The notes below the pieces were generated by a model, which was not told the DNA's origin, did not search any database, and was given only the letters and a program-made list of their open reading frames with translations. Made by a program: the position numbers and the translations under genes. DNA of 56,751 nt from a virus (Duplodnaviria; Heunggongvirae; Uroviricota; Caudoviricetes), in the IMG/VR virus record IMGVR_UViG_2778261162_000006, positions 1 through 56,751 of that record; one strand, 5' to 3'. This document shows positions 42,647 through 56,751 of this stretch, piece by piece; the first letter of the stretch is position 1, and the number at the start of each line of letters is the position of its first letter.

Positions 42647-42694
42647 ATTCGTAATGCGAAGGTCGTAGGTTCGACTCCTATTATCGGCACCATT
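42647..42694 (+). repeat. attR core (copy of tRNA-Thr 3' end); also the tRNA-proximal att of the downstream satellite
   Basis: Identical 48 bp to 1399..1446. Confidence 0.85.
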
Positions 42695-42858
42695 CTAATG
42701 TCTCCCCAAGTCTACTCAAGTATTTAAAAACCTCTTATAATCCGCATGTTAGCGCCCCTTTTAGTCTTTTGACGTCTACTTAAGTACTCCAAAATCTACA
42801 GTCAATTGGGGGTACTTTTGGGGGTATTTGCTGTTCGGTTTAGTGGAGGTACCCCCAA

Positions 42859-44073
42859 GTGAAACTCAATGCCCGTCAAATAGACACTGCCAAGCCAAAA
42901 GAGAAGGCTTACAAGCTGGCTGATGGTGGTGGTCTGTATCTCTTGGTAAAACCTAGTGGAGGAAAATATTGGCGCTTCAAGTATCGTGTAGCTGGTAAAG
43001 AGAAGCTGTTAGCACTAGGTGTGTATCCTGAAGTTACCTTGGCTGATGCTCGTGCAAAACGTGAAGAAGCTAAAAGGGGTATCGCTGGGGGTATCGATCC
43101 GATGGAAGCGAAACGAGAGGAAAAGATTGCCCGGGAAACGCAGTTAAACAACACCTTCAAAGATATTGCCCTTGAGTGGCACAGCAGCAAATTAAAAAAA
43201 TGGTCTGCTGGTTATGCTTCAGACATCCTCGAAGCCTTTAACAAAGATGTGTTCCCTTACATTGGCAAAAAACCAATCGCCGAAATCAAACCACTTGAAC
43301 TGCTGAATGTGCTGCGGCGCATCGAGGGGCGCGGTGCTACCGAAAAAGCCAAAAAAGTGAGGCAGCGATGTGGGGAAGTTTTCCGCTATGCAATTGTCAC
43401 TGGACGTGCTGAGTATAACCCTGCACCGGATCTCACCAGCGCGATGCAAGGTCATGAATCTAATCATTATCCTTTCCTCACAGCCAAAGAATTACCTGAT
43501 TTTTTCAAGGCATTGTCCAGTTACTCAGGAAGTGCATTGGTTGTTATGGCGGCTCGTTTACTGATTATCACCGGTTTGCGGACTGGCGAACTGCGCGGTG
43601 CATTATGGGATGAAATCGATCTCAACAAGGCTATCTGGGAGATACCTGCTTCACGGATGAAAATGCGTCGCCCTCATGTAGTGCCTTTGTCTGAGCAGGC
43701 TCTTTCGCTTATTGGGCAGATTAAAGAACTAACTGGCAATTATCCGCTTATGTTTCCCGGCCGTAATGATCCAAGGAAAACAATGAGCGAGGCTAGCATA
43801 AACCAAGTATTTAAACGCATCGGCTATAACGGAAAGGTTACTGGTCATGGCTTCCGGCACACTATGAGCACCATTTTGCATGAGCAGGGCTATAACACCG
43901 CGTGGATAGAGACACAGCTTGCGCACGTCGATAAAAACTCAATTCGTGGCACATACAACCATGCGCAATATCTGGATGGGCGGCGGGAAATGCTTCAGTG
44001 GTACGCTGATTATATGGATTCGCTCGAGCATGGCGGAAATGTGGTGCATGGTGAGTTCGGAAAATGCGGGTGA
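42859..44073 (+). CDS. P4-type tyrosine integrase
   Basis: 404 aa; GTG start after GGAGG; GHGFRHT and catalytic Tyr region; N-terminal arm-binding domain. Confidence 0.9.
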   Translation: MKLNARQIDTAKPKEKAYKLADGGGLYLLVKPSGGKYWRFKYRVAGKEKLLALGVYPEVTLADARAKREEAKRGIAGGIDPMEAKREEKIARETQLNNTFKDIALEWHSSKLKKWSAGYASDILEAFNKDVFPYIGKKPIAEIKPLELLNVLRRIEGRGATEKAKKVRQRCGEVFRYAIVTGRAEYNPAPDLTSAMQGHESNHYPFLTAKELPDFFKALSSYSGSALVVMAARLLIITGLRTGELRGALWDEIDLNKAIWEIPASRMKMRRPHVVPLSEQALSLIGQIKELTGNYPLMFPGRNDPRKTMSEASINQVFKRIGYNGKVTGHGFRHTMSTILHEQGYNTAWIETQLAHVDKNSIRGTYNHAQYLDGRREMLQWYADYMDSLEHGGNVVHGEFGKCG

Positions 44074-44201
44074 CTGGTTGAGTATACAGTAGTAGACTTT
44101 GAGCGACGAAAGAAAAGGCTGTGTCTAGGGTCGCTCCCGAAAATCCGTACACCTCGACGGACTGGTACAGCCACTACAGTAGAGGACGCTGAGGTGTGCG
44201 T

Positions 44202-44999
44202 ATGATTGATATTCATGCCGAATTAAACGAATACAAAAAAGATTTTATTTCTTTACGTGAATTTCTTGAGGTCGTGCTTAAGGTCGCTGGTGATGATTAT
44301 GATGTTTCAGATGTCATAACTTGGATACTCAGGAGAATAAGCGGAGAACATATCCGCCTGTACACAGTAAATGAATTTAAGCTGTTGGAATCTTTTTGTA
44401 ACCCGTATCGGGATGAATTTGATAATGATGTTCTTTATAGAAATCTGAATGCGGTTCGGAAACGTGGTTGTTTACCTGGTGAGAGGGATGAAAATGGTTT
44501 TCTGGTGTCCGGTTATTGGGAAGATCCCGAATTTGAGAACATTGGATTTATAAGGGGTGAAATTTTCGCAATTTTTCCCGATGTCCTTGACGCGTTAACG
44601 AAGCTGGAAGGCGCTAACTCTTCTGAAAATGACGAGGCACAAGGACGCGATATTGAAAAGAAAGAGTTGCGTACAGAGGATGATTTATTATCCCAAATCG
44701 CAATGCTGGAAAAAGAAAACGCAGAGTTAAGGGCAAGGATAGAGCAGTTAGAGCAAGAGCGCCCGATACACTTATATAAATACTGGGATAAAGACCCATT
44801 AGCTAAGGCTATTGAGATTAGAAACAGAGAGTGGGCCAATTACGATCCAGAAAATGATTTTGCCACCAGGGGAAATCAAGAAGCGATAACCAGGGAGCTT
44901 AAGCAGTGGGGGGCAAGTAATGCACTTGCAACGCTCATAGAGAGGACTGCCTGCCCTATTAACCGAGACAACAGCCAAAAGAACGCAAAGCCGGATTAA
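44202..44999 (+). CDS. Hypothetical protein with central coiled-coil
   Basis: ORF; segment LLSQIAMLEKENAELRARIEQLEQE. Confidence 0.55.
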   Translation: MIDIHAELNEYKKDFISLREFLEVVLKVAGDDYDVSDVITWILRRISGEHIRLYTVNEFKLLESFCNPYRDEFDNDVLYRNLNAVRKRGCLPGERDENGFLVSGYWEDPEFENIGFIRGEIFAIFPDVLDALTKLEGANSSENDEAQGRDIEKKELRTEDDLLSQIAMLEKENAELRARIEQLEQERPIHLYKYWDKDPLAKAIEIRNREWANYDPENDFATRGNQEAITRELKQWGASNALATLIERTACPINRDNSQKNAKPD

Positions 45000-45013
45000 C
45001 GCACCATACCGCA

Positions 45014-45160
45014 TACCCTGAGGGTGATTTACTGTTACCCTGAGGGTATTTTTTTATCTTCCCCGTCAATTTTACCATCACCCTTAGGGTAGATTTCCTC
45101 CCGATTACCATCACCCTTAGGGTAGATTTCCTTCCGGTAACCATTAGGCCTGAGGGTATG
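45014..45160. repeat. Direct repeat array with CCCT(G/T)AGGG cores upstream of alpA
   Basis: TACCCTGAGGGT x2, TACCATCACCCTTAGGGTAGATTTCCT x2, CCTGAGGGTATG. Confidence 0.7.
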
Positions 45161-45226
45161 AAAATATTCGTTATTTCTGTGCCATGATTACCTCGTCAAA
45201 TTGAGTAGACGTTATGAGGTAAATAT

Positions 45227-45424
45227 ATGTCAAATACGCTTATTCGTTTAACAGAAGTTCAGCGTAGAACTGGATATAGCAAGGCATGGATTTATCGCCT
45301 TATGGGGCAAGGTAAATTTCCTGCATCAGTTAAAATTGGCTCGCGAGCTATTGCTTTCGTTGAGAGTGAAATTGACGAGTGGATTAATCAGCGTATTGCG
45401 GAATCACGCGGAACAGCTACCTGA
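45227..45424 (+). CDS. alpA: AlpA-family transcriptional regulator/excisionase
   Basis: 65 aa; LTEVQRRTGYSKAWIYRLMGQGKFP HTH typical of AlpA. Confidence 0.85.
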   Translation: MSNTLIRLTEVQRRTGYSKAWIYRLMGQGKFPASVKIGSRAIAFVESEIDEWINQRIAESRGTAT

Positions 45425-45501
45425 TTAAATGGCTACGGGGCTATTGCCCCCAGCTATCCACCAGCAAATAAAAGTAACTTAATTCGATAGCAGGAGTTTT
45501 T

Positions 45502-46302
45502 ATGAAATTTCCAAAAACGCCCGTACAGGGGCGGGGCTTCGTTCGGCCTGAAAACCAGAATCTGCAAAATTTCGGCGAAATTATCCCGGTTATTTCCGGC
45601 ATTATTGGCGGGTGTGAAACCAATATTGTTAGCGCCAGAGCGTTGCATAAGGCGTTAGGTGTAGGTCGCGTTTTCCGTTCGTGGATCAAGGGGCGCATTG
45701 AAGAATACGGCTTCACGGAAGGCGTGGATTATGAGGTTGTTGAATATTTGAGCCGACCCGATCCGGTGAGCGCAAAATCTCGCCAGCAAACAGCTCTTGA
45801 GTACATCATTACCGTGAACATGGCAAAAGAACTGGCGATGGTCGAACGCACCGAACAGGGCCGCGCCGTTCGCCAGTACTTCATCAAATGCGAGGAGGAG
45901 CTACACAAGGTAGCGCCAGTGCGTTCCGCAGCTTTACGCCGGGAACTGAAAGCCCGTATCACCGTTGCCAGCTACTTTAAGCCAATGTGTGCCGCGCTGG
46001 AGGCGTACCGGGCTGAACTGGGTAAAAACACGCTCCAGCACCATTACACCACGGAAGCCAATATGCTGGCGCGTATCGTGCTGGGTGGCATGACTGCAAA
46101 ACAGTGGGCGCAGGCGAACGGCATCACAGGCGAACCACGCGACCACATGAGCACATTGCAGCTTGAGCACCTTTCTTACCTTGAGCAGAGCAATATCACG
46201 CTGATTGAGTTAGGCCAGGACTACCACCAGCGGAAAGCTGAATTAATTCGTCTTTCGCAGCGTTGGTTAGCCCGTCGCATGGAGGAAAACAGCCATGTGT
46301 AA
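45502..46302 (+). CDS. Phage antirepressor (AntA/KilAC-like)
   Basis: 266 aa; recollection-based family match. Confidence 0.6.
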   Translation: MKFPKTPVQGRGFVRPENQNLQNFGEIIPVISGIIGGCETNIVSARALHKALGVGRVFRSWIKGRIEEYGFTEGVDYEVVEYLSRPDPVSAKSRQQTALEYIITVNMAKELAMVERTEQGRAVRQYFIKCEEELHKVAPVRSAALRRELKARITVASYFKPMCAALEAYRAELGKNTLQHHYTTEANMLARIVLGGMTAKQWAQANGITGEPRDHMSTLQLEHLSYLEQSNITLIELGQDYHQRKAELIRLSQRWLARRMEENSHV

Positions 46303-46968
46303 CGCTCTGACCGTTACAAAAAGAGAAAGCGCCCCGTTGCCGGAGCGCCTTTGTGAACAAATCGCTTACTGCGCCATATTGTTTACTGCCTTTCGGGCAG
46401 ATTATAGCGTTGTGGTCGCACAGAGTGAAGGCGCTGATCACTGTTACTACAGTACGCCAGAAATGCAGAATATTTTGCTGCAAAATGCCGTTAGCCACGC
46501 TGTCCGGAAAGCAAAAAATTTTGCTGGTGGCGCGACTGATGCGATTTTGTCAGGTCACCAGGTGCTGATCAATCTGATGTCTGATTTCGTTCTGGATAAA
46601 ACAAAGGCGACTGCAGAGGGCCACCAGTGGGAAAGCTACACACTTGAACACATTGCCAACAATGCCAGATTTGCGGCTGGTGGGCAATGTGATCAGTGTG
46701 CTGGCTTGCTGGTGGGCTATTCATGCTCTTTAACATTGCCATGCCGCGATGTTTTCCAGGTATGCGATCCCATTTTTGTGCGCCTGTACTCTTTAAGGAA
46801 TTGCTCAAGGGCAAAAGCACATGGCGCGAATCTTTCTGATTCATGCTCTATCTTTCTGCGCCGTCTTTTCCGTGCCGGTGATGGTGTATTGGTTGATTCT
46901 TTGTTGGTCATTCTGTGTACCTGTAAAGCAATGCGCCGGAGTTCCTCACACCACGGCGATGATAGTTA

Positions 46969-47274
46969 TTATTCTGATTCTTTGGCCTTGCGGCGCTGGA
47001 GTTCTTCACGTGCGACGGTGACGAGCTGCCCGATCTCCTCGGCAGCTTTGACTCCGATTTTTTCCACCTGCGCCAGCGCATCGAGCGAAGAAACTAGGGG
47101 ATTTTCTCCGCTTCCTTCTGCCTGGCGGCGGGCGATCTCACCGCGCATGGCGGTTACTATGAATCCGGCGTTGCTTTCACCGTCCAGTTTTACGGATTCC
47201 ATGCCTTCAAAAGCATCATGTGGGATACGAATTGAAATCTGTTTTGATTTGTCGTTGATAGTGTTTTTTGCCAT
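46969..47274 (-). CDS. Hypothetical regulator-like protein (101 aa)
   Basis: ATG after GGAG; divergent from 47462 gene across operator-bearing intergenic region. Confidence 0.55.
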   Translation of the reverse strand: MAKNTINDKSKQISIRIPHDAFEGMESVKLDGESNAGFIVTAMRGEIARRQAEGSGENPLVSSLDALAQVEKIGVKAAEEIGQLVTVAREELQRRKAKESE

Positions 47275-47294
47275 GTGCATTCTCCTAAACAAAA

Positions 47295-47375
47295 GATGTG
47301 ATTCAGTATACACAAAAAAGAATCACAAAAAATACTTGACCTGTGATTCAGTTAAATTTAATTTAAATCACACCT
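47295..47375. promoter_or_regulatory. Operator-like sites in divergent promoter region
   Basis: TGTGATTCAG x2 direct, GAATCACA and AAATCACAC inverted. Confidence 0.55.
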
Positions 47376-47461
47376 CAGTAAGAGGATGTAAACGACAACG
47401 CCCCGAACTGTTTGCGGCAGTAGCGGGGCGTCTAACCAAACCGTTAAATGAGGTAACGATT

Positions 47462-47827
47462 ATGGCTGGAACACAGCATACCCAAACTCACCCTAAATTT
47501 ATATACACCTTCCTGGCGGTGCACCGTGATTGCATAGCTGACGGTAAAAACACTGTACACGTAGCTGCTGATACGCTGGTTGATGCCTGCGAGATGCTCA
47601 ATGACATGGGCTATATCTCGGCAACATGGAAAGGGCGCGAAGAAAACACGCTGTTTATTCAGAAATGCGAGAACAATTTTATCTGGCGTTTTATCGCCCT
47701 GAGCACAGCACAACCGCGCGTAATTCACATCGAGGCCACCAGCGAACAGGAAGCACGCCAGCAATCCCCTGATGGCTGCGTGATGGTATTCGCTGCCCGT
47801 ATTCGCCAGGAGGTGGAGCATGTGTAA
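47462..47827 (+). CDS. Hypothetical protein (121 aa)
   Basis: ATG after GAGGTAACG; part of the long composite ORF 46295..47827. Confidence 0.55.
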   Translation: MAGTQHTQTHPKFIYTFLAVHRDCIADGKNTVHVAADTLVDACEMLNDMGYISATWKGREENTLFIQKCENNFIWRFIALSTAQPRVIHIEATSEQEARQQSPDGCVMVFAARIRQEVEHV

Positions 47828-48044
47828 TGTAACATGGCCTGATGCAGCGGTAGACGCTATCAAAACGCTGATGGATTCACTTATTGAGATTTCAGCTATC
47901 GCTGGTGTGGCGCATAAACACGCAGTCAGAGAATCAGAATGCATCTCCCATTATTTAGCATTTGTGCAGCTAAAAGCCGATCAGGCACTGGATAAGGCCG
48001 GAAAAATTATCATGGCTGATGTGCAGGAGGTGCACCATGCATAA
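47820..48044 (+). CDS. Small hypothetical protein (74 aa)
   Basis: ORF, overlapping junctions in an operon of small genes. Confidence 0.4.
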   Translation: MCNVTWPDAAVDAIKTLMDSLIEISAIAGVAHKHAVRESECISHYLAFVQLKADQALDKAGKIIMADVQEVHHA

Positions 48045-48402
48045 TTCGGCTATTTCTGAACTTAACAGCATTCAGTTTGATGAGAAATTTACCGGGCAGC
48101 TACTGGTCAATGTAGAGAATGGACGCGTAGTAAGTAATTATCACCTGCCGGATGGTGCAATTGCCGGAAGCGTTGAAGCATTCCTGGCACTGGCGGAGCG
48201 TGCGCGACTGATTAAGCCGTCAACGTGCCATCACGATGATGATCTGCGTTTTACCGGGTGTATGGTGAGTCACTACGAAAACGGCGTTGAAGTATCCCGC
48301 GAACGTCTGTGTGATGATTACTGTTTCGGCACATTGCCGGAATTTATCGAATTGCTGACCAGTTGCGGTTATCAGGTCATTCAGGGGGGGAAACATGCGT
48401 GA
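48037..48402 (+). CDS. Hypothetical protein
   Basis: ORF; N-terminus paralogous to 48621..48821. Confidence 0.5.
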   Translation: MHNSAISELNSIQFDEKFTGQLLVNVENGRVVSNYHLPDGAIAGSVEAFLALAERARLIKPSTCHHDDDLRFTGCMVSHYENGVEVSRERLCDDYCFGTLPEFIELLTSCGYQVIQGGKHA

Positions 48403-48628
48403 TGATCGTTTTAATTCCCTGAAACGGGAATTTGATGGCGCACCGGAAGATGCAGCGGGCGCATTGTTGAGCGTTGCTGACATGATGAAAGCTGCATATT
48501 TTCTTATCAATACCAGTGGCTACAAGTCAGAGGGTGAAATGATTCTTAGTATTGCGTCGGACTATGCGGAATATGTGGCAGAGACGCGTTACAGAAGAAA
48601 ATTCACGGAGGATGTAAGCCATGCATAA
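48395..48628 (+). CDS. Small hypothetical protein (77 aa)
   Basis: ORF with overlapping junctions. Confidence 0.45.
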   Translation: MRDDRFNSLKREFDGAPEDAAGALLSVADMMKAAYFLINTSGYKSEGEMILSIASDYAEYVAETRYRRKFTEDVSHA

Positions 48629-48821
48629 TCATGAAGCGCATGTACCCGTAGTGCTTAATGTGCCAGATGATTTCACCGGACGCGTACTGGTTTACCTGGA
48701 TAAAGGGAAAGTGAAATCACAATGCCGATTGAAAAGTAATGAGATTGTTGGTTCTCCTGAATTTTTTTCTGAACTTTGTATTCGTGCGGAAATAAAACCG
48801 GAACTGCTGACAGGAAAATAA
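48621..48821 (+). CDS. Small hypothetical protein (66 aa), paralog of 48037 N-terminus
   Basis: MHNHEAHVPVVLNVPDDFTGRVLVYLDKGKV vs MHNSAISELNSIQFDEKFTGQLLVNVENGRV. Confidence 0.45.
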   Translation: MHNHEAHVPVVLNVPDDFTGRVLVYLDKGKVKSQCRLKSNEIVGSPEFFSELCIRAEIKPELLTGK

Positions 48822-48825
48822 AACC

Positions 48826-49116
48826 ATGAAAAAGAAAAATTCTGGCTTTACTGCCAGCGGCCTCTCTCGGCCTGAAATCCGCCCCGGTGATATTTTCCGG
48901 GACACCAGACGCGGGGGACGGGTGGTTATTCGTCACGTTATGCCAGGCAATATCACCTACCGCCGTGAGGCTTACGAATATGACTGCGTAATGCCGCGCC
49001 GTCAGTTTGAGCGTGATTTTATTCTGGTTGAAAACAAACAACAGGCGGTGGCGAGACGTGCAGCCACGAATATTAAAAAAATCCGGGCAATGTTGGTTGC
49101 GGGAGGTAAGAAGTGA
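48826..49116 (+). CDS. Hypothetical basic protein (96 aa)
   Basis: ORF upstream of primase. Confidence 0.5.
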   Translation: MKKKNSGFTASGLSRPEIRPGDIFRDTRRGGRVVIRHVMPGNITYRREAYEYDCVMPRRQFERDFILVENKQQAVARRAATNIKKIRAMLVAGGKK

Positions 49117-50885
49117 AAAACGCACCGAATTTAAAATATCAGCCGAAGGATAAATTCACCGAGGTAATCATTTTTGCCGGGACGGACGCTTACTCCCATG
49201 CTCAACACTGGATTGAAAGCGAAGGACGAAAACACGGCGATAACGTACCACCTGTTTACCTGGGGCCAAAGCAACTGGCAGACCTGGTGAATATCCGCAT
49301 TGTCGACGATGAACGCCGCTTTGCGCGTGTCTATCTCGCGGGGGAGATCGAACCAATCCAGATCAATGCTATCGCTGAAAAACTGGCGCTGGCTGGCGTA
49401 CAGGAGGCGAAATTATACAAAGGCATCACCGACCGGGAACCGGAGAACTGGCGCGATTACCTGCAACGGATCCGCGAACAGGCAGAGCGCGGGGATATTC
49501 TGTCAGGAAGGACTGAGAAAAAACACAAAATCTCTCTTTCCAGAATGGCGGATAACGAGCGAGCTTCACTTTTGGCTGAATGCTTTGAGGAAATAGCTGT
49601 TCACCCTGGTAACAATTTTGCTTATGCATACTGTTCTGGAGTGTGGGAAAAAATATCTGATATGGAGTTGAGTCGTAAAATGGTATCAATTTACGAAAAA
49701 AACAAGACAAATTTCAGTAAGCGGGCAATTAGTAATGCGGTTGATGCTTTAAAAATATCTGTACCCGTAATGAGAGAACAGAGTGACACCATAATACCTT
49801 TTGAAAATGGAGTTTATGACATAACAAGTGGTAGATTTTTACCTCATTCACCAGAGCACTGGATCACTTCGCATAATGGAATTTATTATACGCCACCTGC
49901 GCCTGGTGAAAATATTCATGACCATGCGCCCCATTTTCATCGTTGGCTGTCACATGCAGCAGGATACGATTCATCAAAGATGAAGCGGATATGTGCTGCT
50001 CTGTTTATGGTTTTGGCTAATCGCTACGACTGGCAATTATTCATTGAAGCAACTGGCGAAGGTGGAAGTGGTAAAAGTATGTTTACTCAAATTGCCAGAA
50101 TGTTGGCGGGTGAGCAGAACACCGCAGGCAGTGATATGAAAGCGTTAGATGATGCTGGTGGACGTGAGCAACTAGTTGGTAAAAGTCTGATTATTTTACC
50201 GGACCAACCTAAATATTTTGGTGAAGGTAATGGTATTAAAGCTATAACAGGTGGGGATCCTCTGCAAATCAACCCGAAATATGAAAAAAGATACACCACT
50301 GTCTTACGCTCAGTTGTTTTGATAACAAATAATAAACCGATGGTTTTTACAGAAAGAGCGGGAGGTATTTCACGCCGTAGGGTTATTTTTCAGTTCAATA
50401 ATCCGATAGCGGAAGAAAACAAGGACACATGTTTACCCAAAAAAATTGCAGCGGAAATTCCGGTAATAGTCCGTAGGCTGTTGGTAAATTTTTCAGATCC
50501 CGAAAAAGCAAGAACATTACTGCTCGAACAACGTGATGGTGAAGAAGCAATGGAAGTAAAACGCCATACTGATCCGCTATATGCTTTTTGTAACCATATT
50601 GTCGAACTTGGTGAAGCTGTAGGAATGTTCATGGGAAACCTGAATATATATCCAAGAGCCCCTCGAATTTATCTTTACCATGCATATCTTGCATATATGG
50701 ATGCTTATGGTTTCGATAAGCCATTAAATCTAACTAATTTTGGCAAAGATTTCCCAAAAGTGATGAAAGAATATGGGGCTGAGTATAAGAAGGCAAAGAC
50801 CAATGTCGGAATGCGCTACAACATGGAGCTGGCTGACAGTGCTAATGAATGGTTACCCGCTGTGCCAAAAATCCATGAAAAGTGA
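49113..50885 (+). CDS. P4 alpha-like primase/helicase
   Basis: 590 aa; GTG start after GGGAGGT; Walker A EATGEGGSGKSM; followed by iteron-rich origin. Confidence 0.75.
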   Translation: MKNAPNLKYQPKDKFTEVIIFAGTDAYSHAQHWIESEGRKHGDNVPPVYLGPKQLADLVNIRIVDDERRFARVYLAGEIEPIQINAIAEKLALAGVQEAKLYKGITDREPENWRDYLQRIREQAERGDILSGRTEKKHKISLSRMADNERASLLAECFEEIAVHPGNNFAYAYCSGVWEKISDMELSRKMVSIYEKNKTNFSKRAISNAVDALKISVPVMREQSDTIIPFENGVYDITSGRFLPHSPEHWITSHNGIYYTPPAPGENIHDHAPHFHRWLSHAAGYDSSKMKRICAALFMVLANRYDWQLFIEATGEGGSGKSMFTQIARMLAGEQNTAGSDMKALDDAGGREQLVGKSLIILPDQPKYFGEGNGIKAITGGDPLQINPKYEKRYTTVLRSVVLITNNKPMVFTERAGGISRRRVIFQFNNPIAEENKDTCLPKKIAAEIPVIVRRLLVNFSDPEKARTLLLEQRDGEEAMEVKRHTDPLYAFCNHIVELGEAVGMFMGNLNIYPRAPRIYLYHAYLAYMDAYGFDKPLNLTNFGKDFPKVMKEYGAEYKKAKTNVGMRYNMELADSANEWLPAVPKIHEK

Positions 50886-51165
50886 ACAGTGGTGAACAGT
50901 GGTGAACAGTAGTGTTCACCTCTAAAAGCTGCGTCATTACTGGATTCATCGACGAAATGAACGCCGTGAACAGTTTCGGCTAAAACTTTTAAAACGCATT
51001 GTAACTTGTAACAGTGAATCATTTTCACTGCAAATTAAATTCTATAGGGGGTAACTGTTCAACTGTTCACTGAAACAAAATAACCATATGATTTTAAACT
51101 AAAAAACATAGTGAACAGTTATTAAAAAACTGTTCACTAACTATTCACGACTGTTCACAATCAAA
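50881..51165. repeat. Origin-like iteron cluster (P4 ori/crr-like)
   Basis: GTGAACAGT x3 tandem, GTGTTCACC, and many further TGAACAGT/ACTGTTCA copies. Confidence 0.7.
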
Positions 51166-51233
51166 ATGGAATAGTGTGAATAATTGGAATTTTTATCACG
51201 AAATTATAGAAATAGAGTTGCAAAGGGGGGGGT

Positions 51234-51581
51234 ATGTTTCTTGAAGCTATACCCAAAAATATTTCGCCAGCGGTTCAGGGTTGGTGGGCAAAATTCAGGA
51301 ATGATAATGGCAACGACTGGTATAGTCCGATTGCAGCATGGGCGATTTGTGATGTGTTTTATTCTGGTGATTCAGAAATTTATTCTGAAATATTACCGAT
51401 TCTTACTGGTGAGTATGGAATGGCACCGTATCATCAGGAAGATGGTTTTTACGAATGCATGTATTTGCCAAACACAAAATTCATTCTTTCTGATGAACCT
51501 GGATCATTTGCGTGGTATCCGGTAGATGAAAGTGCCGGGCATGAAACAATCAGTAAAAACGATGGGGCAAAGCATGACTAA
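51234..51581 (+). CDS. Hypothetical protein (115 aa)
   Basis: ORF with ATG after G-rich RBS. Confidence 0.5.
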   Translation: MFLEAIPKNISPAVQGWWAKFRNDNGNDWYSPIAAWAICDVFYSGDSEIYSEILPILTGEYGMAPYHQEDGFYECMYLPNTKFILSDEPGSFAWYPVDESAGHETISKNDGAKHD

Positions 51582-52104
51582 GCTGACCATTAACAGAAAA
51601 CCGAAAGGCATTTACGGCACGCCGCAGAAAACGACGCAGGCGGCACAGGAGCAGGATAAAACCACGTCGGCGCATAAAGTGATGCCCGGTAACCAGAAAG
51701 CGCAGCAGAAGCCCACAGGGGCGACACCGTGGCGGCATATGACCAAGCGCCAGCGCAAAAACCGCAGGCGCATTAACCGCCTCACTGAGTTGTGGCCTGA
51801 ATTATTCAGCCGGGAAGCACCGAAGCCGCTTAAGGTGGGGATATTCGACGACCTGATGCAGGATCTCGCCGTCAGGGGGCTGGCATTCGGTCCAGGGGCA
51901 TTGCGTGCGACGCTGGCATCTTATGCACAGTGTCCGCGCTATTACCGCGCCTTAATGGCTGGTGGGGTACGCTACGACCTGAAAGGCCAGCCGTGCGGCG
52001 AGGTGACACCACAGGAACAACAGGACGCAGAAACGCGGCTGGTGGCGCTGAATGAGAAGCGCAAACGTCAGCGCCGGGTAGCAAAGGAGAAAACAGGCGC
52101 ATGA
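51574..52104 (+). CDS. ProQ/FinO-family RNA-binding protein
   Basis: RRRINRLTELWPELF...PKPLKVGIFDDL...ALRATLASYAQCPRYYRAL matches the FinO-domain pattern. Confidence 0.7.
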   Translation: MTKLTINRKPKGIYGTPQKTTQAAQEQDKTTSAHKVMPGNQKAQQKPTGATPWRHMTKRQRKNRRRINRLTELWPELFSREAPKPLKVGIFDDLMQDLAVRGLAFGPGALRATLASYAQCPRYYRALMAGGVRYDLKGQPCGEVTPQEQQDAETRLVALNEKRKRQRRVAKEKTGA

Positions 52105-52388
52105 TTCACGACAGCAAAGCGGAAGCACTGGAAGCGCGTGGCCTGTACCGGAGAGCGGCGGCGCGGTGGGCTGAGGTCATCATGCTGGCGAATGATGACA
52201 AGGCACGGGAACAGGCGGCAAAACGTCGCGCGGAATGTATCCGCAAGGCAGCACGCCCACCAGCACGGCAGGATAATTTCGGGGAGATGCGCGAAACCAT
52301 CAGCCGGGCACATGCCGGGATGGGATTACATCAGCCCAATGGTAAGGCATTCAGGAAATACCCTGGATCGAAAAATTGCAGTCAGTGA
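52101..52388 (+). CDS. PerC-family transcriptional regulator
   Basis: EALEARGLYRRAAARWAEV signature. Confidence 0.7.
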   Translation: MIHDSKAEALEARGLYRRAAARWAEVIMLANDDKAREQAAKRRAECIRKAARPPARQDNFGEMRETISRAHAGMGLHQPNGKAFRKYPGSKNCSQ

Positions 52389-52802
52389 CGGAGGCCGGGA
52401 TTTTTCCCGGCTTTTTTGTGCCAGTAAAAAGCCCGCAGCCAGAAGTGTTGCGGGCTTTGTTTTTCAGGTGATTGAAGTCAATGGGAAGAACGCGATCATC
52501 ATGCGTTATCGTTTCATAAATTGCAATGATGTAGATCGTCATTTCAGTTTATGCAATCATAACCATTGTTTTGTTCAGGAGATATGACTATGAGAAAAGC
52601 CAGCGTGAAACCCGTTTTACTCGCTCGTGATCAGATTGAAGCATTACAGCGCATCCAGGACGAGGAACGCCGCAATTCTCCGCTGGGGATTGCTCCGAGC
52701 ATTCATGAGGTCGCCCGGCGTTTAATGCAGCGGGCGCTTTATCCCGTAGAACGTCCGGCCTGATGGTCGTGATTTTTTGGTGAAAAAAGAGAGGTGGTAA
52801 AA

Positions 52803-53381
52803 ATGCCAGCAAGCAAAGAAGATTTGCGATTAAAACTGATGGAGGTGGTTAACGCTCTGTCAGAGTCGCAGGGAAGCACTCCGCAGGAGATTATCGAAAT
52901 TCTGAATGCGATCCCCGCACAGGATTTCATAAAAGAGGATAACGCGAATCAAAACATCGTCGCGTCAGTCGAAGATGAATCCTCACTGGCAGAAGCCCAG
53001 GCTAAAGCGGATTCCGCATACAGCAATATGGGCCGTCGCGCTCCGGCCCCGTTTGCTGGTGAAAAGTCGATGGATTACCGCAAACGTGCATTAATTGGCG
53101 CACAGAAGCTGGCTAAAAAATTCAGTGATGTGGATATTCGTTCCGTTTCAGATTCTGCAACGCTGGCGGTGCTGGAAGATCAGATTTACAAGGCTGCTCA
53201 GGAAAGTGCTCAGTGGGCCGTGGAAAACACGCCGGGCCATTTGGGTAAAACCGTAAGAATGGATGAAGCCGGTCGTCGTATTACTGAATATCAAGGAGAT
53301 CCGAACGTCTGGCTGAACGCCTTCAAAATCCCTCCCCGTCGCCTGGTCAAAATTAACGTTGCAAGCCTCGCGGGGGCATGA
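52803..53381 (+). CDS. Hypothetical protein (possible capsid-remodelling/late protein)
   Basis: ATG after GAGGTGG; position in distal late-like region. Confidence 0.5.
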   Translation: MPASKEDLRLKLMEVVNALSESQGSTPQEIIEILNAIPAQDFIKEDNANQNIVASVEDESSLAEAQAKADSAYSNMGRRAPAPFAGEKSMDYRKRALIGAQKLAKKFSDVDIRSVSDSATLAVLEDQIYKAAQESAQWAVENTPGHLGKTVRMDEAGRRITEYQGDPNVWLNAFKIPPRRLVKINVASLAGA

Positions 53382-53445
53382 AAAACGTGCTGAGTTCAGC
53401 CCTGCCGGATTTGGCGGGGCTTATTGCTTATAACCGGATAACATT

Positions 53446-54117
53446 ATGCTTTTAACAGAAATTGAGGCGGCGAAGCAGGTTCGGGACGGACAGCTACCGT
53501 CGCCTTATCAGTTTTCCAACATGTGGCTGGTTAACCTGCGTATCACAGGAACCGGAATGGCCTACCGCGCCGAAGAAAAAGAATTTGTCTGGCGTTCACC
53601 GCAAACTTATCTCAATCCGCAGTTCCTGGAACGTTGCGCCGGAGTACCCGTCATTATCGACCATCCCGAAAGCAAAACCCTTGAAGACGTGGGCGAACGG
53701 TCGCGCATTATTGGCACCGTCATGTTGCCGTATATTCGCGGTGACGAGGTGTGGGGCGTATGCCGGATTTACGGGCAGGAAATCATCGATTACATCCAGA
53801 AAGCACGGGGGGAGGTATCCACCAGCCCGTCGGTTGTGTTTTGTGGTGCGTCCGGTGGGGCTGAAGTTCCTGATGTAATGGGCGAGGACAATTTTTTTAT
53901 TGAGGGTACGCCATTTCTTATCGATCACGTTGCGCTCGTGCCGCTTGGTGTTTGGGATAAGGGCGGGAAACCATCGGGCGTGGAAGTAACAACGCCGACA
54001 GCAGAAGAACAGCTTGCCGGAATGGTCCGGGACGTTATTGATGCGGCCTGCAAGCCAGCCCTGGAAAAACTGGAAGAAATATCCGGGCGGCTGGCTCAAC
54101 TGGAAAAAGAAGGGTGA
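53446..54117 (+). CDS. Hypothetical protein (223 aa)
   Basis: ORF. Confidence 0.5.
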   Translation: MLLTEIEAAKQVRDGQLPSPYQFSNMWLVNLRITGTGMAYRAEEKEFVWRSPQTYLNPQFLERCAGVPVIIDHPESKTLEDVGERSRIIGTVMLPYIRGDEVWGVCRIYGQEIIDYIQKARGEVSTSPSVVFCGASGGAEVPDVMGEDNFFIEGTPFLIDHVALVPLGVWDKGGKPSGVEVTTPTAEEQLAGMVRDVIDAACKPALEKLEEISGRLAQLEKEG

Positions 54118-54123
54118 GTCATA

Positions 54124-54651
54124 ATGCTGATGAGTAAGGCAGAATATGCCAAACACAAAGGCGTAAGCCGCCAGACAGTTTACGACTGGATCGATAAAGG
54201 CGAAGTGGTCATGTCCGGTAAAAAAATCGATGTGGAAGCGACAGAGCAGCGGAACAGCCCACCTGCACAGGGAAAAGACACAGTTTCTGAAATGTGGCCA
54301 GAGAGAACGCTGGAAATGACGTGGGGCGAGTTCTGGAAAGCAGTTAAGGCCAGAGGCGGTAAAATTCCTGCGCCAGCAACGGACGAGGGCATACAGCAGC
54401 GTGTGCTGGATGCAGCCGGGGAATTAGGCTGGGAAGTGCACTTTCTTGATGATGGTGCTATCTGCCTTGAGGATTGCGACGGGCAGCATTACTTTGAACA
54501 ATACAATTTGCGAGGTAATGCCAGGCTGGCAATTCGTATGCTGCGTTGCGAACTCTGCTATGTTGCAGGTGATTATCCCGATGAACTGGAATCATGGAGT
54601 GAAGCCGGGCTAAACGCCCTGGCTGAATGGGAAAAATCAGACCATCAATGA
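54124..54651 (+). CDS. HTH DNA-binding protein
   Basis: N-terminal SKAEYAKHKGVSRQTVYDWIDKGEV helix-turn-helix. Confidence 0.55.
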   Translation: MLMSKAEYAKHKGVSRQTVYDWIDKGEVVMSGKKIDVEATEQRNSPPAQGKDTVSEMWPERTLEMTWGEFWKAVKARGGKIPAPATDEGIQQRVLDAAGELGWEVHFLDDGAICLEDCDGQHYFEQYNLRGNARLAIRMLRCELCYVAGDYPDELESWSEAGLNALAEWEKSDHQ

Positions 54652-54655
54652 CATC

Positions 54656-54870
54656 AAAAAGTGTCAAGTTGAGCAGCTTGCCAGGTTGACACTTTACACT
54701 CTGAACGCGAAAAAGTGTCAACCTCGCTGTAAGCCCCGCCATTACTGGGTTTGTGCCAGATTTACCACGTCAAAAAGCCGAAAAAATCGCGAAAAGTGTC
54801 AAGTTGCTATGCTTAGAAATGCTAAGGTTTGATAAGGTTTTTCGCGAAAAAGTGTCAAGTGTGTCAACCG
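54656..54870. repeat. Array of AAAAGTGTCAA repeats with inverted TTGACACTT partner
   Basis: At least four direct copies at ~50-80 bp spacing and one perfect 10-bp inverted pair separated by 20 bp. Confidence 0.7.
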
Positions 54871-55143
54871 CGCCGCTTTAGAAAACTTTATGTGCAGATC
54901 GTTGGATGCATCTGTCAAAACTTGCCACCCACCAGCACCGCCAGCGGGGATTTTTGGCTACACGCGCTCTAAGTAACAGTTGCTTCAGTGCGTTACATAC
55001 GTTGGAAGTGTTATAACTCAAGTTTTTGAGACAAAGTCAGAATTGTATGAATTTGTCTATAGCCGTCTACTCAAGTTTTCTACATAATATAAGGAAATAG
55101 CATGTTGTTTAATTAATGTACGATAATTCTGAAAGAGTAACAT

Positions 55144-55971
55144 ATGATAAACTTAGATATGGATGTTGTGGTTGGACATGGGCAGAACGATTTTGAAGAA
55201 TTAGAAATGAATTCCGGCATAAAGGTTTTTGCTGGAGCTTCTGACATCACCCAAATTACAACAAGCACTATTTTAGATGATTCAGTCCCCAAAAAATCAA
55301 CCTCTATACATGGGCTTAGGAATATGTTCAAACATACATTTGATGGATCGTTTGGACAAAATTTTGAACTTAGAATTGATGATCCTGAAAAGATAAAAAG
55401 ATTTAATGAAATTGGCAGGGGTGTTTTTTTTGATGTTATGTCATATTACATCTCTAAAGGAATGGGAATAGCTCACCATCTTAAGAGCCAGAAAGCAATC
55501 GACTTAGTAGAGCGTCTTAAACCGCTTGAAAAACAACTTTTGATAAGAATTCAGGAACCTATACAGAATTTACATAAAACAGTTGAGAAACAAAAATATA
55601 ATGTACTTCTGAGAAGAAGAACACCAACTAAAAAATTAGTTGTTGCTAAAATGGATACGCAGACGCTCTTCAATATCAATGTAGAGCATGAATCTGCTCA
55701 ACCAGTAGAAGAAAATGTTATTATAACTAGGTTTAATATGTTAACAGGAACTGGTCGATTGTTATTAGATAGACAGTCAGATTCAATTGCCTTTAGACAC
55801 CATCTTAATTGGGAACATGTATTGCAGTCTCAGAAAAATAAGTTTTCAAGGAATCTTGATAGGAATAACAGAGGTGGTAAAGACGCTTTTATACCTATAA
55901 CCATTTCTGCTTATGAGTTGCGCGATCATATTGGAGAGCTAAAGGCTTATATAATTAGAGAAATATTGTAA
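55144..55971 (+). CDS. Hypothetical protein A (275 aa), first gene of AT-rich cargo operon
   Basis: ATG; strongly AT-rich; no recognised motifs. Confidence 0.65.
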   Translation: MINLDMDVVVGHGQNDFEELEMNSGIKVFAGASDITQITTSTILDDSVPKKSTSIHGLRNMFKHTFDGSFGQNFELRIDDPEKIKRFNEIGRGVFFDVMSYYISKGMGIAHHLKSQKAIDLVERLKPLEKQLLIRIQEPIQNLHKTVEKQKYNVLLRRRTPTKKLVVAKMDTQTLFNINVEHESAQPVEENVIITRFNMLTGTGRLLLDRQSDSIAFRHHLNWEHVLQSQKNKFSRNLDRNNRGGKDAFIPITISAYELRDHIGELKAYIIREIL

Positions 55972-56751
55972 ATGAAGATGCCCTCAATCAAAGTTATTTC
56001 ACTTATATTAATAGCTATTGTATGGTATTTTTACTTTTCTCATTTCAATCATTGGGATAGCCCGTTAGATATCTTTAATGCTAGCAAATGGATGGGTTTT
56101 TCCAATGATAAAGGTGATTGGGGCACTTTCGGGGATTTTGTAGGAGGTGTGCTTAATCCTATCTTGACCTTCATTACAATTGTTATGCTCATTAATTCCT
56201 TGAAACTTCAACGAGAAGCAAACGAGCAACTAATTAAAGACGAAAGAAGACAAGAGAAAGACGTTCTTCTAAAACGGTTTGAAGACGGTTTTTATAACCT
56301 TATCTCTTCAGAAAGAGAGGAGTTTAGTTGTTTTACTATTAACATTAACGGAAAAGAATACCGCTCATCTGCTGCTGTTAGTGAATTGGAAGAGGCAATA
56401 TGGGCTTTTATTGAGAAACAAATAGATGAAAAAGGAGCTTGCGAAATTGAGGATGTTAAAAATTACATAAATAAAATTGATGAGGATTCATCTATGGCAA
56501 TATTTTCCATGGTGCGATGTGTATATGTTGTTTTTAAGGTTGTTAAGGATAAATGCCCTGAAGAACATCAAGATTACTACTTAGATATTTTTATGAATAT
56601 GTTACCAGTTAAACTGGTAAATTTAGTTGCTATTGTGTCTGTGTATATGGACTGGAAAAACGTAAAATATATTATTGATGGTGGAAAAGGATTTTCGGAT
56701 AATGAAGCAGTTAAAGAATATATTAATACTTGGAAGGAGTTTCATGAATAA
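55972..56751 (+). CDS. Hypothetical membrane protein B (259 aa, two N-terminal TM helices)
   Basis: ATG immediately after the stop of gene A; hydrophobic helices VISLILIAIVWYFYF and FVGGVLNPILTFITIVMLI; a further ATG begins 11 nt before window end. Confidence 0.65.
   Translation: MKMPSIKVISLILIAIVWYFYFSHFNHWDSPLDIFNASKWMGFSNDKGDWGTFGDFVGGVLNPILTFITIVMLINSLKLQREANEQLIKDERRQEKDVLLKRFEDGFYNLISSEREEFSCFTININGKEYRSSAAVSELEEAIWAFIEKQIDEKGACEIEDVKNYINKIDEDSSMAIFSMVRCVYVVFKVVKDKCPEEHQDYYLDIFMNMLPVKLVNLVAIVSVYMDWKNVKYIIDGGKGFSDNEAVKEYINTWKEFHE

Follow-up and report, generated by a model that had tools for sequence, protein, structure and literature searches.

A phage satellite at the end of a 56,751-nt stretch of viral DNA (Caudoviricetes; IMG/VR record IMGVR_UViG_2778261162_000006, positions 1 to 56,751; hereafter, the window) carries two coupled genes, A and B, as its last cargo. 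On balance, we favour the reading that A-B is a two-component abortive-infection or phage-exclusion module carried as satellite cargo, an anti-phage role to which both genomic context and remote homology point. The slot that the pair occupies holds known anti-phage systems in sister satellites, and B is remotely related to the lactococcal abortive-infection protein AbiC; the two observations together make A-B a good defence candidate.

Gene A (55144-55971, + strand) encodes a 275-aa soluble protein, in which an N-terminal alpha/beta domain of the DUF7946 type precedes a C-terminal OB-fold of the DUF7947 type (residues ~188-274). Gene B (55972-56751, + strand) encodes a 259-aa inner-membrane protein that is a remote putAbiC relative; the gene is further characterized by its open reading frame (ORF), its match to phrog_8999, its AlphaFold2 (AF2) model, and its hydropathy. 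The stop codon of A abuts the start codon of B (TAAATG, spacer 0 nt), as described in a first-pass annotation of the window, which had also called the first protein soluble; A contains no hydrophobic segment. The sharp fall in GC content that this annotation placed after a repeat array (54652-54873) is equally real, from 0.475 in the satellite backbone (42695-54872) to 0.34 in the cargo (54873-56751). At the base composition of the cargo, stop codons have a frequency of 0.083 per codon, and the probability of an open frame by chance is ~4e-11 for the 275 codons of A and ~2e-10 for the 259 codons of B. Comparison with the copy in the Klebsiella phage Kp4865-4 (86% DNA identity) gives ratios of nonsynonymous to synonymous substitution (dN/dS) of 0.063 for A and 0.143 for B. 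Because such frames are improbable by chance and the dN/dS values are low, A and B are both real genes under strong purifying selection.

The operon consists of two genes and is complete within the window, the last position of which is the end of the stop codon of B. The first-pass annotation had a third ATG at 56741 open another gene and had the operon run past the window. The ATG is at 56744 (56744-56751, + strand) and does not begin a gene. In locus L001 (NZ_AP027764.1), which is 99.9% identical in this stretch, the frame reads ATG AAT AAA AAT AAT TTC TGA and encodes MNKNNF* only, that is, 6 codons, and RefSeq annotates no gene there. Extension of the sequence via NZ_AP027764.1 reaches attR, a copy of the tRNA-Thr 3' end with one mismatch, ~260 bp past B without any further + strand gene 3' of B; a core LysR regulator gene comes next on the opposite strand. 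The short frame, the attachment site (att), and the opposite-strand core gene thus rule out a third gene or a longer operon. The pair is the last cargo before attR and is, as had been noted, tightly coupled and of foreign composition at the distal end of the element. A terminator scan 3' of B returned nothing convincing.

The pairing of A with B is obligate. A is followed by B in 20 of the 20 loci that have downstream sequence, with copies on plasmids, phages, and viral contigs included, and the two genes are directly coupled in 19 of them; at the exception, L010, A is truncated and lies ~290 nt from B. The A/B junctions range from abutting to an 8-nt overlap or a gap of a few nt. On the contigs of the A homologues P0041, P0055, and P0100, the next gene downstream is in each case a B homologue. 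A locus scan based on B, with one genome per species and 70 loci, placed A immediately upstream in 8 of 8 loci with full-length B-type matches (>100 bits), and ~55 more distant putAbiC-like proteins had neither A nor any common partner. Across loci, the identity of A and that of B to the window copies drop in step.

Together with a ~170-bp leader, the two coupled genes form an autonomous module that moves horizontally. The AT-rich leader (54977-55143, + strand) travels with A-B: DNA homology with Kp4865-4 starts at 54977, 167 bp upstream of A, and stops at the end of B, and these bounds define the mobile unit (leader, A, and B). The leader, which contains the direct repeat ACTCAAGTTTT twice, at 55016 and 55069 (repeat family D4), has a presumed regulatory role. 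Of 5426 complete E. coli genomes, 57 (~1%), among them lineages recovered from humans, contain this 1.75-kb stretch at ≥99% identity. The pair is also found beside an integrase 66% identical to that of the satellite, again at thrW (L009), in a lambdoid prophage region of Pantoea, in the Klebsiella phage Kp4865-4, on IncX1 conjugative plasmids among DinQ-like type I toxins, and on a 4.6-kb ColE1 plasmid as the sole cargo besides rop and a helix-turn-helix (HTH) gene. Given its occurrence in E. coli genomes at this frequency, on IncX1 plasmids, and in Klebsiella phages, the pair may affect phage host range.

The position of A-B in the satellite is a true cargo hotspot, as the first-pass annotation had proposed. 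The TerS/repeat region that precedes the pair was found in 167 E. coli genomes, most of which lose homology at window position 54872. Beyond that point, sister satellites carry PARIS (E. coli 55989, at the thrW-pao site; AriA 5e-43, AriB 4e-22), the PADLOC candidate PDC-M04A/B (DUF3800), a 662-aa RNA-binding protein with DinD (PDC-S13) in E. coli ABU 83972 (L082, 8369-10357), or a DUF4747 protein with a 199-aa hypothetical protein in E. coli APEC IMT5155 (L083, 7344-8836). In RM9088, the slot holds only a short hypothetical ORF, then an integrase remnant and a type I restriction-modification locus. Phage-inducible chromosomal islands (PICIs) have been reported with immune systems at their 5' or 3' ends (PMC11364771). 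The 662-aa 'RNA-binding domain' protein of L082 gives weak matches to the PADLOC models pAgo and Aga_SIR2-PNTD; the cargoes of L082 and L083 are themselves uncharacterised candidates.

The AAAAGTGTCAA repeat array (54652-54873), with 4 direct copies plus inverted copies (families D1-D3 and I1-I4), is the last conserved backbone before the cargo. Located downstream of the TerS-like gene, it recurs in sister satellites, and backbone homology stops exactly there. Possible roles are those of a packaging (cos/pac) site, a set of TerS-binding sites, or origin iterons.

The first-pass annotation recognized no motif in either protein. Single-protein searches of Pfam, NCBIfam, and PADLOC gave no significant match either, but the proteins are not devoid of motifs, since A appears to be a DUF7946/DUF7947-family protein, with an OB-fold, and B is a remote putAbiC relative. 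B alone has no significant match in Pfam or NCBIfam, and its close homologues are all unannotated; in PHROGs it matches phrog_8999 (E 1e-45), a family of unknown function. The distant phmmer matches of B are the proteins P0019-P0030, 5 of which carry PF16872 ('putative phage abortive infection protein') above threshold. With P0029, BLASTP aligns residues 1-211 of B to residues 1-190 (6e-17), and the alignment enters the PF16872 domain of P0029 (157-224). Profile-profile comparison by hhalign of B with its putAbiC-bearing relatives gives probabilities of 98.5 and 99.9. B is thus, as judged by sequence comparison, a remote homologue of the Pfam putAbiC proteins and not a certified member.

The two N-terminal transmembrane (TM) helices and the charged cytoplasmic domain attributed earlier to the second protein are borne out by hydropathy, by a charged helical region, and by the AF2 model. 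The hydrophobic segments are at residues ~6-25 (TM1) and ~55-77 (TM2). The AF2 model, with a predicted local distance difference test (pLDDT) score of 81, has a continuous helix at residues 47-119, forming a stalk after TM2, and a helical domain at 132-256. The charge distribution, the hydropathy, and this model suggest that the N- and C-termini of B are both cytoplasmic. The conserved WGTFGDFVGGVLNPILTF motif sits at the entry to TM2. No relative of B with a solved structure was found by sequence or fold. The suggestion made at the outset, that a membrane partner would suit abortive infection, gains support from the remote homology of B to an abortive-infection family.

A alone likewise gives nothing significant in Pfam, NCBIfam, or PADLOC, and its single-sequence match is to phrog_13337, of unknown function. 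It has a sub-threshold match to DUF7947 over residues 188-271 (E 0.028; 14.9 bits, cut-off 27) and, in Pfam, no match to DUF7946. An exhaustive profile search collected 143 clusters at 50% identity as the A family, nearly all of 260-285 aa. Among the aligned family members, DUF7946 is matched in 44 of 78 and DUF7947 in 42 of 78, and more than half match both in that order. By sequence, A would therefore belong to the DUF7946+DUF7947 architecture family, A itself lying below the gathering score. The Pfam entries of both domains carry no function.

The AF2 model of A (pLDDT 94) predicts the C-terminal elements E188-198, E203-207, E215-219, H228-243, E252-260, and E266-274, that is, the canonical OB topology of beta1-3, helix, and beta4-5; in the model, the C-terminal domain is an OB-fold. 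No solved-structure relative of A, its N-terminal domain included, was found by sequence or fold (Foldseek returned nothing). Residues G31, G68, S69, H144, N198, G202, G204, R205, F217, and L238 are near-invariant across the A family, with concentrations in the first OB hairpin (TRFNxxTGxGRL) and the GSxGQ loop. S69, in the GSxGQ loop (~55348-55350), and H144, in the helical region (~55573-55575), are nearly invariant in the whole family, a conservation pattern with which a catalytic or ligand-binding site in the N-terminal domain could be consistent. Two other assignments of A were tried and rejected. A HEPN reading, from R135...H144, was dropped because only H144 is kept family-wide and the spacing and the fold do not fit. 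The PDC-M02 assignment falls because the PDC-M02B match is weak (E 2e-4, 48 residues) and occurs in 3 of 78 members only, the closest ones.

Based on these features, the favoured two-component module would work via the following steps. Given their gene arrangement, A and B would be translated from a shared transcript in a coupled manner, at a constant ratio, and would then form a complex. B would reside in the inner membrane, with its two ends cytoplasmic and its stalk helix supporting the helical cytoplasmic domain; its most conserved motif would lie where TM2 is entered from the periplasm. A would be the cytoplasmic specificity or sensor subunit, whose OB-fold, with the TRFNxxTGxGRL hairpin, may bind a phage-derived ligand, e.g., single-stranded nucleic acid or a phage protein. 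Ligand-bound A would switch on B, and B would stop phage development either via membrane damage or by disturbing phage gene expression at the membrane, as reported for AbiC/AbiP.

Several findings weigh against this reading. The mechanism of AbiC/AbiP is not established (PMC13064643), so homology says little on how B acts. The homology has its own limits: the C-terminal domain of B alone aligns weakly (P=0.02), though in the right register; B and 14 relatives have no PF16872 match even at E<1 (gathering score 22 bits), and as no member of the B family reaches the Pfam putAbiC model directly, B is a remote relative only. B also has no match among the PADLOC models, which are assumed to include an AbiC model. 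In unrelated genomes, only a few of 65 neighbours of the AbiC-like subtype match defence models (these include NERD+UvrD and GajB-type helicase models, mad3 and AriA-type ATPase models, and AbiO), and many neighbours of the pair are ordinary mobile-element or core genes. Finally, a promoter scan of the leader found no + strand sigma-70 consensus site, and no promoter was identified.

The same features can be read with the roles reversed, in a Kiwa-like manner, B being a membrane sentinel for phage attachment, DNA entry, or envelope stress and A the effector whose OB-fold binds and blocks phage nucleic acid. We regard this as unlikely, albeit the best placed of the alternatives. It would account for the location of the WGTFGD..GG..NP motif, which is conserved across the putAbiC-like superfamily, at the outer end of TM2, and for the nucleic-acid-type OB-fold in A; moreover, the constancy of A while the membrane subunit is swapped (see below) could equally mean one effector served by varied sensors. 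However, solo putAbiC-like proteins are common (the ~55 loci without A or a common partner) and lactococcal AbiC works as a single gene, so the membrane protein seems able to act alone, and A has no nuclease or other catalytic signature in Pfam.

A more doubtful proposal takes A-B as a toxin-antitoxin or addiction cassette that stabilizes mobile elements, with a membrane toxin B neutralized by A and no specific anti-phage role. The tight coupling of two genes, the many kinds of mobile element that carry them, the small ColE1 plasmid on which they are the only cargo, and their place among DinQ-like type I toxins on IncX1 plasmids are all compatible with such a cassette. Against it, A is large for an antitoxin (275 aa, two folded domains) and has no detected DNA-binding domain of an autoregulator, and the slot otherwise holding defence systems, together with the AbiC relationship, points to phage. 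Many abortive-infection systems are themselves toxin-antitoxin-like, so that this proposal overlaps with the favoured one.

A role in the life cycle of the satellite or phage, such as holin-like lysis or timing, superinfection exclusion at DNA entry, or helper-phage interference, rather than general immunity, appears less probable again. The pair does occur in satellites and temperate phages, both proteins have PHROG families, and B is a membrane protein with few TM helices, but the pair is also present on conjugative and ColE1 plasmids without phage genes and in chromosomal islands, and B, with a 180-aa cytoplasmic domain, is far larger than holins. Furthermore, sister satellites lack the pair and have other cargo instead, which places A-B outside the satellite core programme. 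Least probable of all is accessory cargo with a stress, envelope, or inter-bacterial competition function, for example, that has nothing to do with phage or with the upkeep of mobile elements, which the purely hypothetical annotation of both proteins, the many ligand types bound by OB-folds, and the modest defence-gene enrichment around distant homologues would allow, but against which the hotspot context, the remote AbiC homology, and the restriction-like and SIR2 neighbours of distant homologues speak.

Distant relatives of A have other membrane partners. The genes for P0119 and P0181 overlap by 4 nt with that of a different protein of ~190 aa with a single TM helix, whose family comprises at least 186 clusters and has one member named DUF4760 in UniRef. 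Downstream of P0165, another A relative, a gene ~150 nt away encodes a TM protein with a NERD-like motif read by eye. No homology was detected between B and the 1-TM DUF4760-like partner. Mrr_cat/Zn-ribbon, PLDc_2, and SIR2_2 genes are among the neighbours of distant A relatives. These arrangements raise the tentative idea of a broad, unrecognized class of membrane-associated anti-phage systems that share the DUF7946/DUF7947 OB-fold protein as sensor or adaptor and have an interchangeable, membrane-anchored executor (2-TM AbiC-like, 1-TM DUF4760-like, or TM-NERD). If so, the pair in the window would be the first tractable E. coli example of the OB-fold-adaptor class, and the class would open a route to the AbiC/AbiP mechanism. 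That the soluble subunit stays the same while its membrane partners change also offers a handle for telling sensor from executor.

Should A-B protect against phage, it would constitute a small, self-contained system of E. coli (~1.8 kb) that connects the 30-year-old, mechanistically opaque AbiC/AbiP family with a dedicated OB-fold partner and gives a function to the DUF7946/DUF7947 family (~143 clusters, Proteobacteria and beyond).

The element that carries the pair is one of two integrated at the same tRNA gene. The window contains, in order, proA, tRNA-Thr (1369-1444), a ~41-kb prophage, a second att, and the ~14-kb satellite. The second att (42675-42694, + strand), a copy of the tRNA-Thr 3' end, repeats the 20 nt at 1427-1446 exactly (chance expectation, 0 matches) and marks the prophage/satellite junction. 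The prophage integrase is on the minus strand at 1459-2622, and the prophage lies directly at tRNA-Thr (thrW, next to proA). Since prophage and satellite are in tandem at this site, helper and satellite may sit side by side. The satellite integrase (42859-44073, + strand; phrog_1 integrase, E 2e-78) stands at the proximal end of the cargo-bearing element, and its L001 homologue is a tyrosine recombinase in RefSeq. A doubled TGGGGGTA(n)TTTGGGGGTAT motif is found just inside both satellite ends, at window 42807-42827 near attL and at L001 16929-16950 near attR; these motifs are probably integrase arm-type binding sites.

The satellite encodes the integrase, an unknown 267-aa ORF, an Ant-like regulator, a primase, a ProQ/FinO-like protein, a PerC-like protein, two phrog_6216/DUF2213 proteins, and a TerS-like HTH protein; the TerS-like gene is followed by the AAAAGTGTCAA array and then by A-B. 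According to the SatelliteFinder definitions, a P4-like satellite has an integrase, Psu, Delta, Sid, an AlpA-type regulator, Ash/epsilon, and an alpha primase, and a PICI has an integrase, a regulator, a primase-replicase, a capsid-morphogenesis gene, and a small terminase, with tail and holin genes absent (PMC10085698). An integrase and an alpha-like primase are present. Psu, Sid, and Delta have no PHROGs match among the nine larger satellite ORFs, and none is listed in the RefSeq annotation of L001. Of the PICI set, the integrase, HTH and Ant regulators, and the primase are found; the DUF2213/phrog_6216 proteins have a putative capsid role, and the TerS-like protein matches phrog_57 only weakly (1.5e-7, confined to the N-terminal 42 residues). 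By this comparison of gene sets, the satellite appears to fit the PICI type better than P4. The first-pass annotation was thus right in calling the element a phage satellite and not in calling it P4-like, there being no sign of Psu, Sid, or Delta among the nine larger ORFs or in the L001 annotation.

Directly after the satellite integrase, in the PICI 5' accessory position, lies the 267-aa ORF (44196-44999), which has no PHROG match and no PDB relative and is possibly a second cargo gene. A 510-aa ORF (46295-47827) matches phage repressor-type PHROGs in its last ~70 residues only. At the corresponding position, L001 has only small ORFs annotated, so the satellites are mosaic upstream of ~54125; from ~54125 to the end, the window and L001 are 96.9% identical in DNA. 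At 10328-11490 of L001 (NZ_AP027764.1), an IS3 insertion truncates the PerC-like regulator gene, and the A-B cargo is intact and 99.9% identical.

As far as PADLOC-DB v2.0.0 and the searchable literature show, A-B appears to be undescribed, in line with the expectation of the first-pass annotation, although catalogues later than 2023 may have a name for it. No system entry of PADLOC-DB v2.0.0 (5027 models searched) corresponds to the pair: B has no match and A only the weak one to PDC-M02B. The pair is unmentioned in the searchable literature, being described neither in the Tai work nor in the language-model defence preprint, and databases name both proteins 'hypothetical protein' only. To the DUF7946/DUF7947 family, the present analysis adds the OB-fold assignment and the obligatory membrane partner. 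PARIS of E. coli 55989 occupies the identical slot at thrW, bounded by the TerS-like gene and repeat array on one side and by attR on the other, but it consists of an ABC-type ATPase and a DUF4435 Toprim protein, to which an OB-fold protein and a 2-TM protein are unrelated. Kiwa consists of the membrane protein KwaA and KwaB. Like A-B, it joins a membrane protein and a soluble protein with possible nucleic-acid binding, but the gene order and folds of Kiwa are unlike those of A-B; A has no DUF4868 match in Pfam, and neither A nor B matches a Kiwa model of PADLOC.

RexA/RexB of phage lambda and Sucellos resemble A-B in that a soluble protein of ~275-280 aa is encoded directly upstream of a small membrane protein on temperate elements. 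The soluble protein of Rex is a sensor that activates a membrane channel, and in the RexAB-like Sucellos both genes are needed for protection (bioRxiv 10.1101/2024.07.02.601686). Membership of A-B in the RexAB family is rejected at the sequence-profile level, with hhalign probabilities of 0.2 (A vs RexA) and 0.1 (B vs RexB). RexB has 4 TM helices and 144 aa, whereas B has 2 TM helices and 259 aa. The closest parallel to B is lactococcal AbiC, a single-gene system with 2 TM helices and an extramembrane domain common to the RNA-binding AbiP (PMC13064643). B likewise combines two N-terminal TM helices with a subsequent helical domain outside the membrane, and it is detectably homologous to PF16872-bearing proteins over ~200 residues. 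It differs in that AbiC is a single gene and B is always coupled to A, and in that B is linked to the group via the PF16872 bearers and not via the lactococcal AbiC sequence itself. A-B is therefore best described, as far as its sequences can indicate, as a candidate for an AbiC-type membrane abortive-infection protein that has been made dependent on a previously uncharacterised OB-fold partner.

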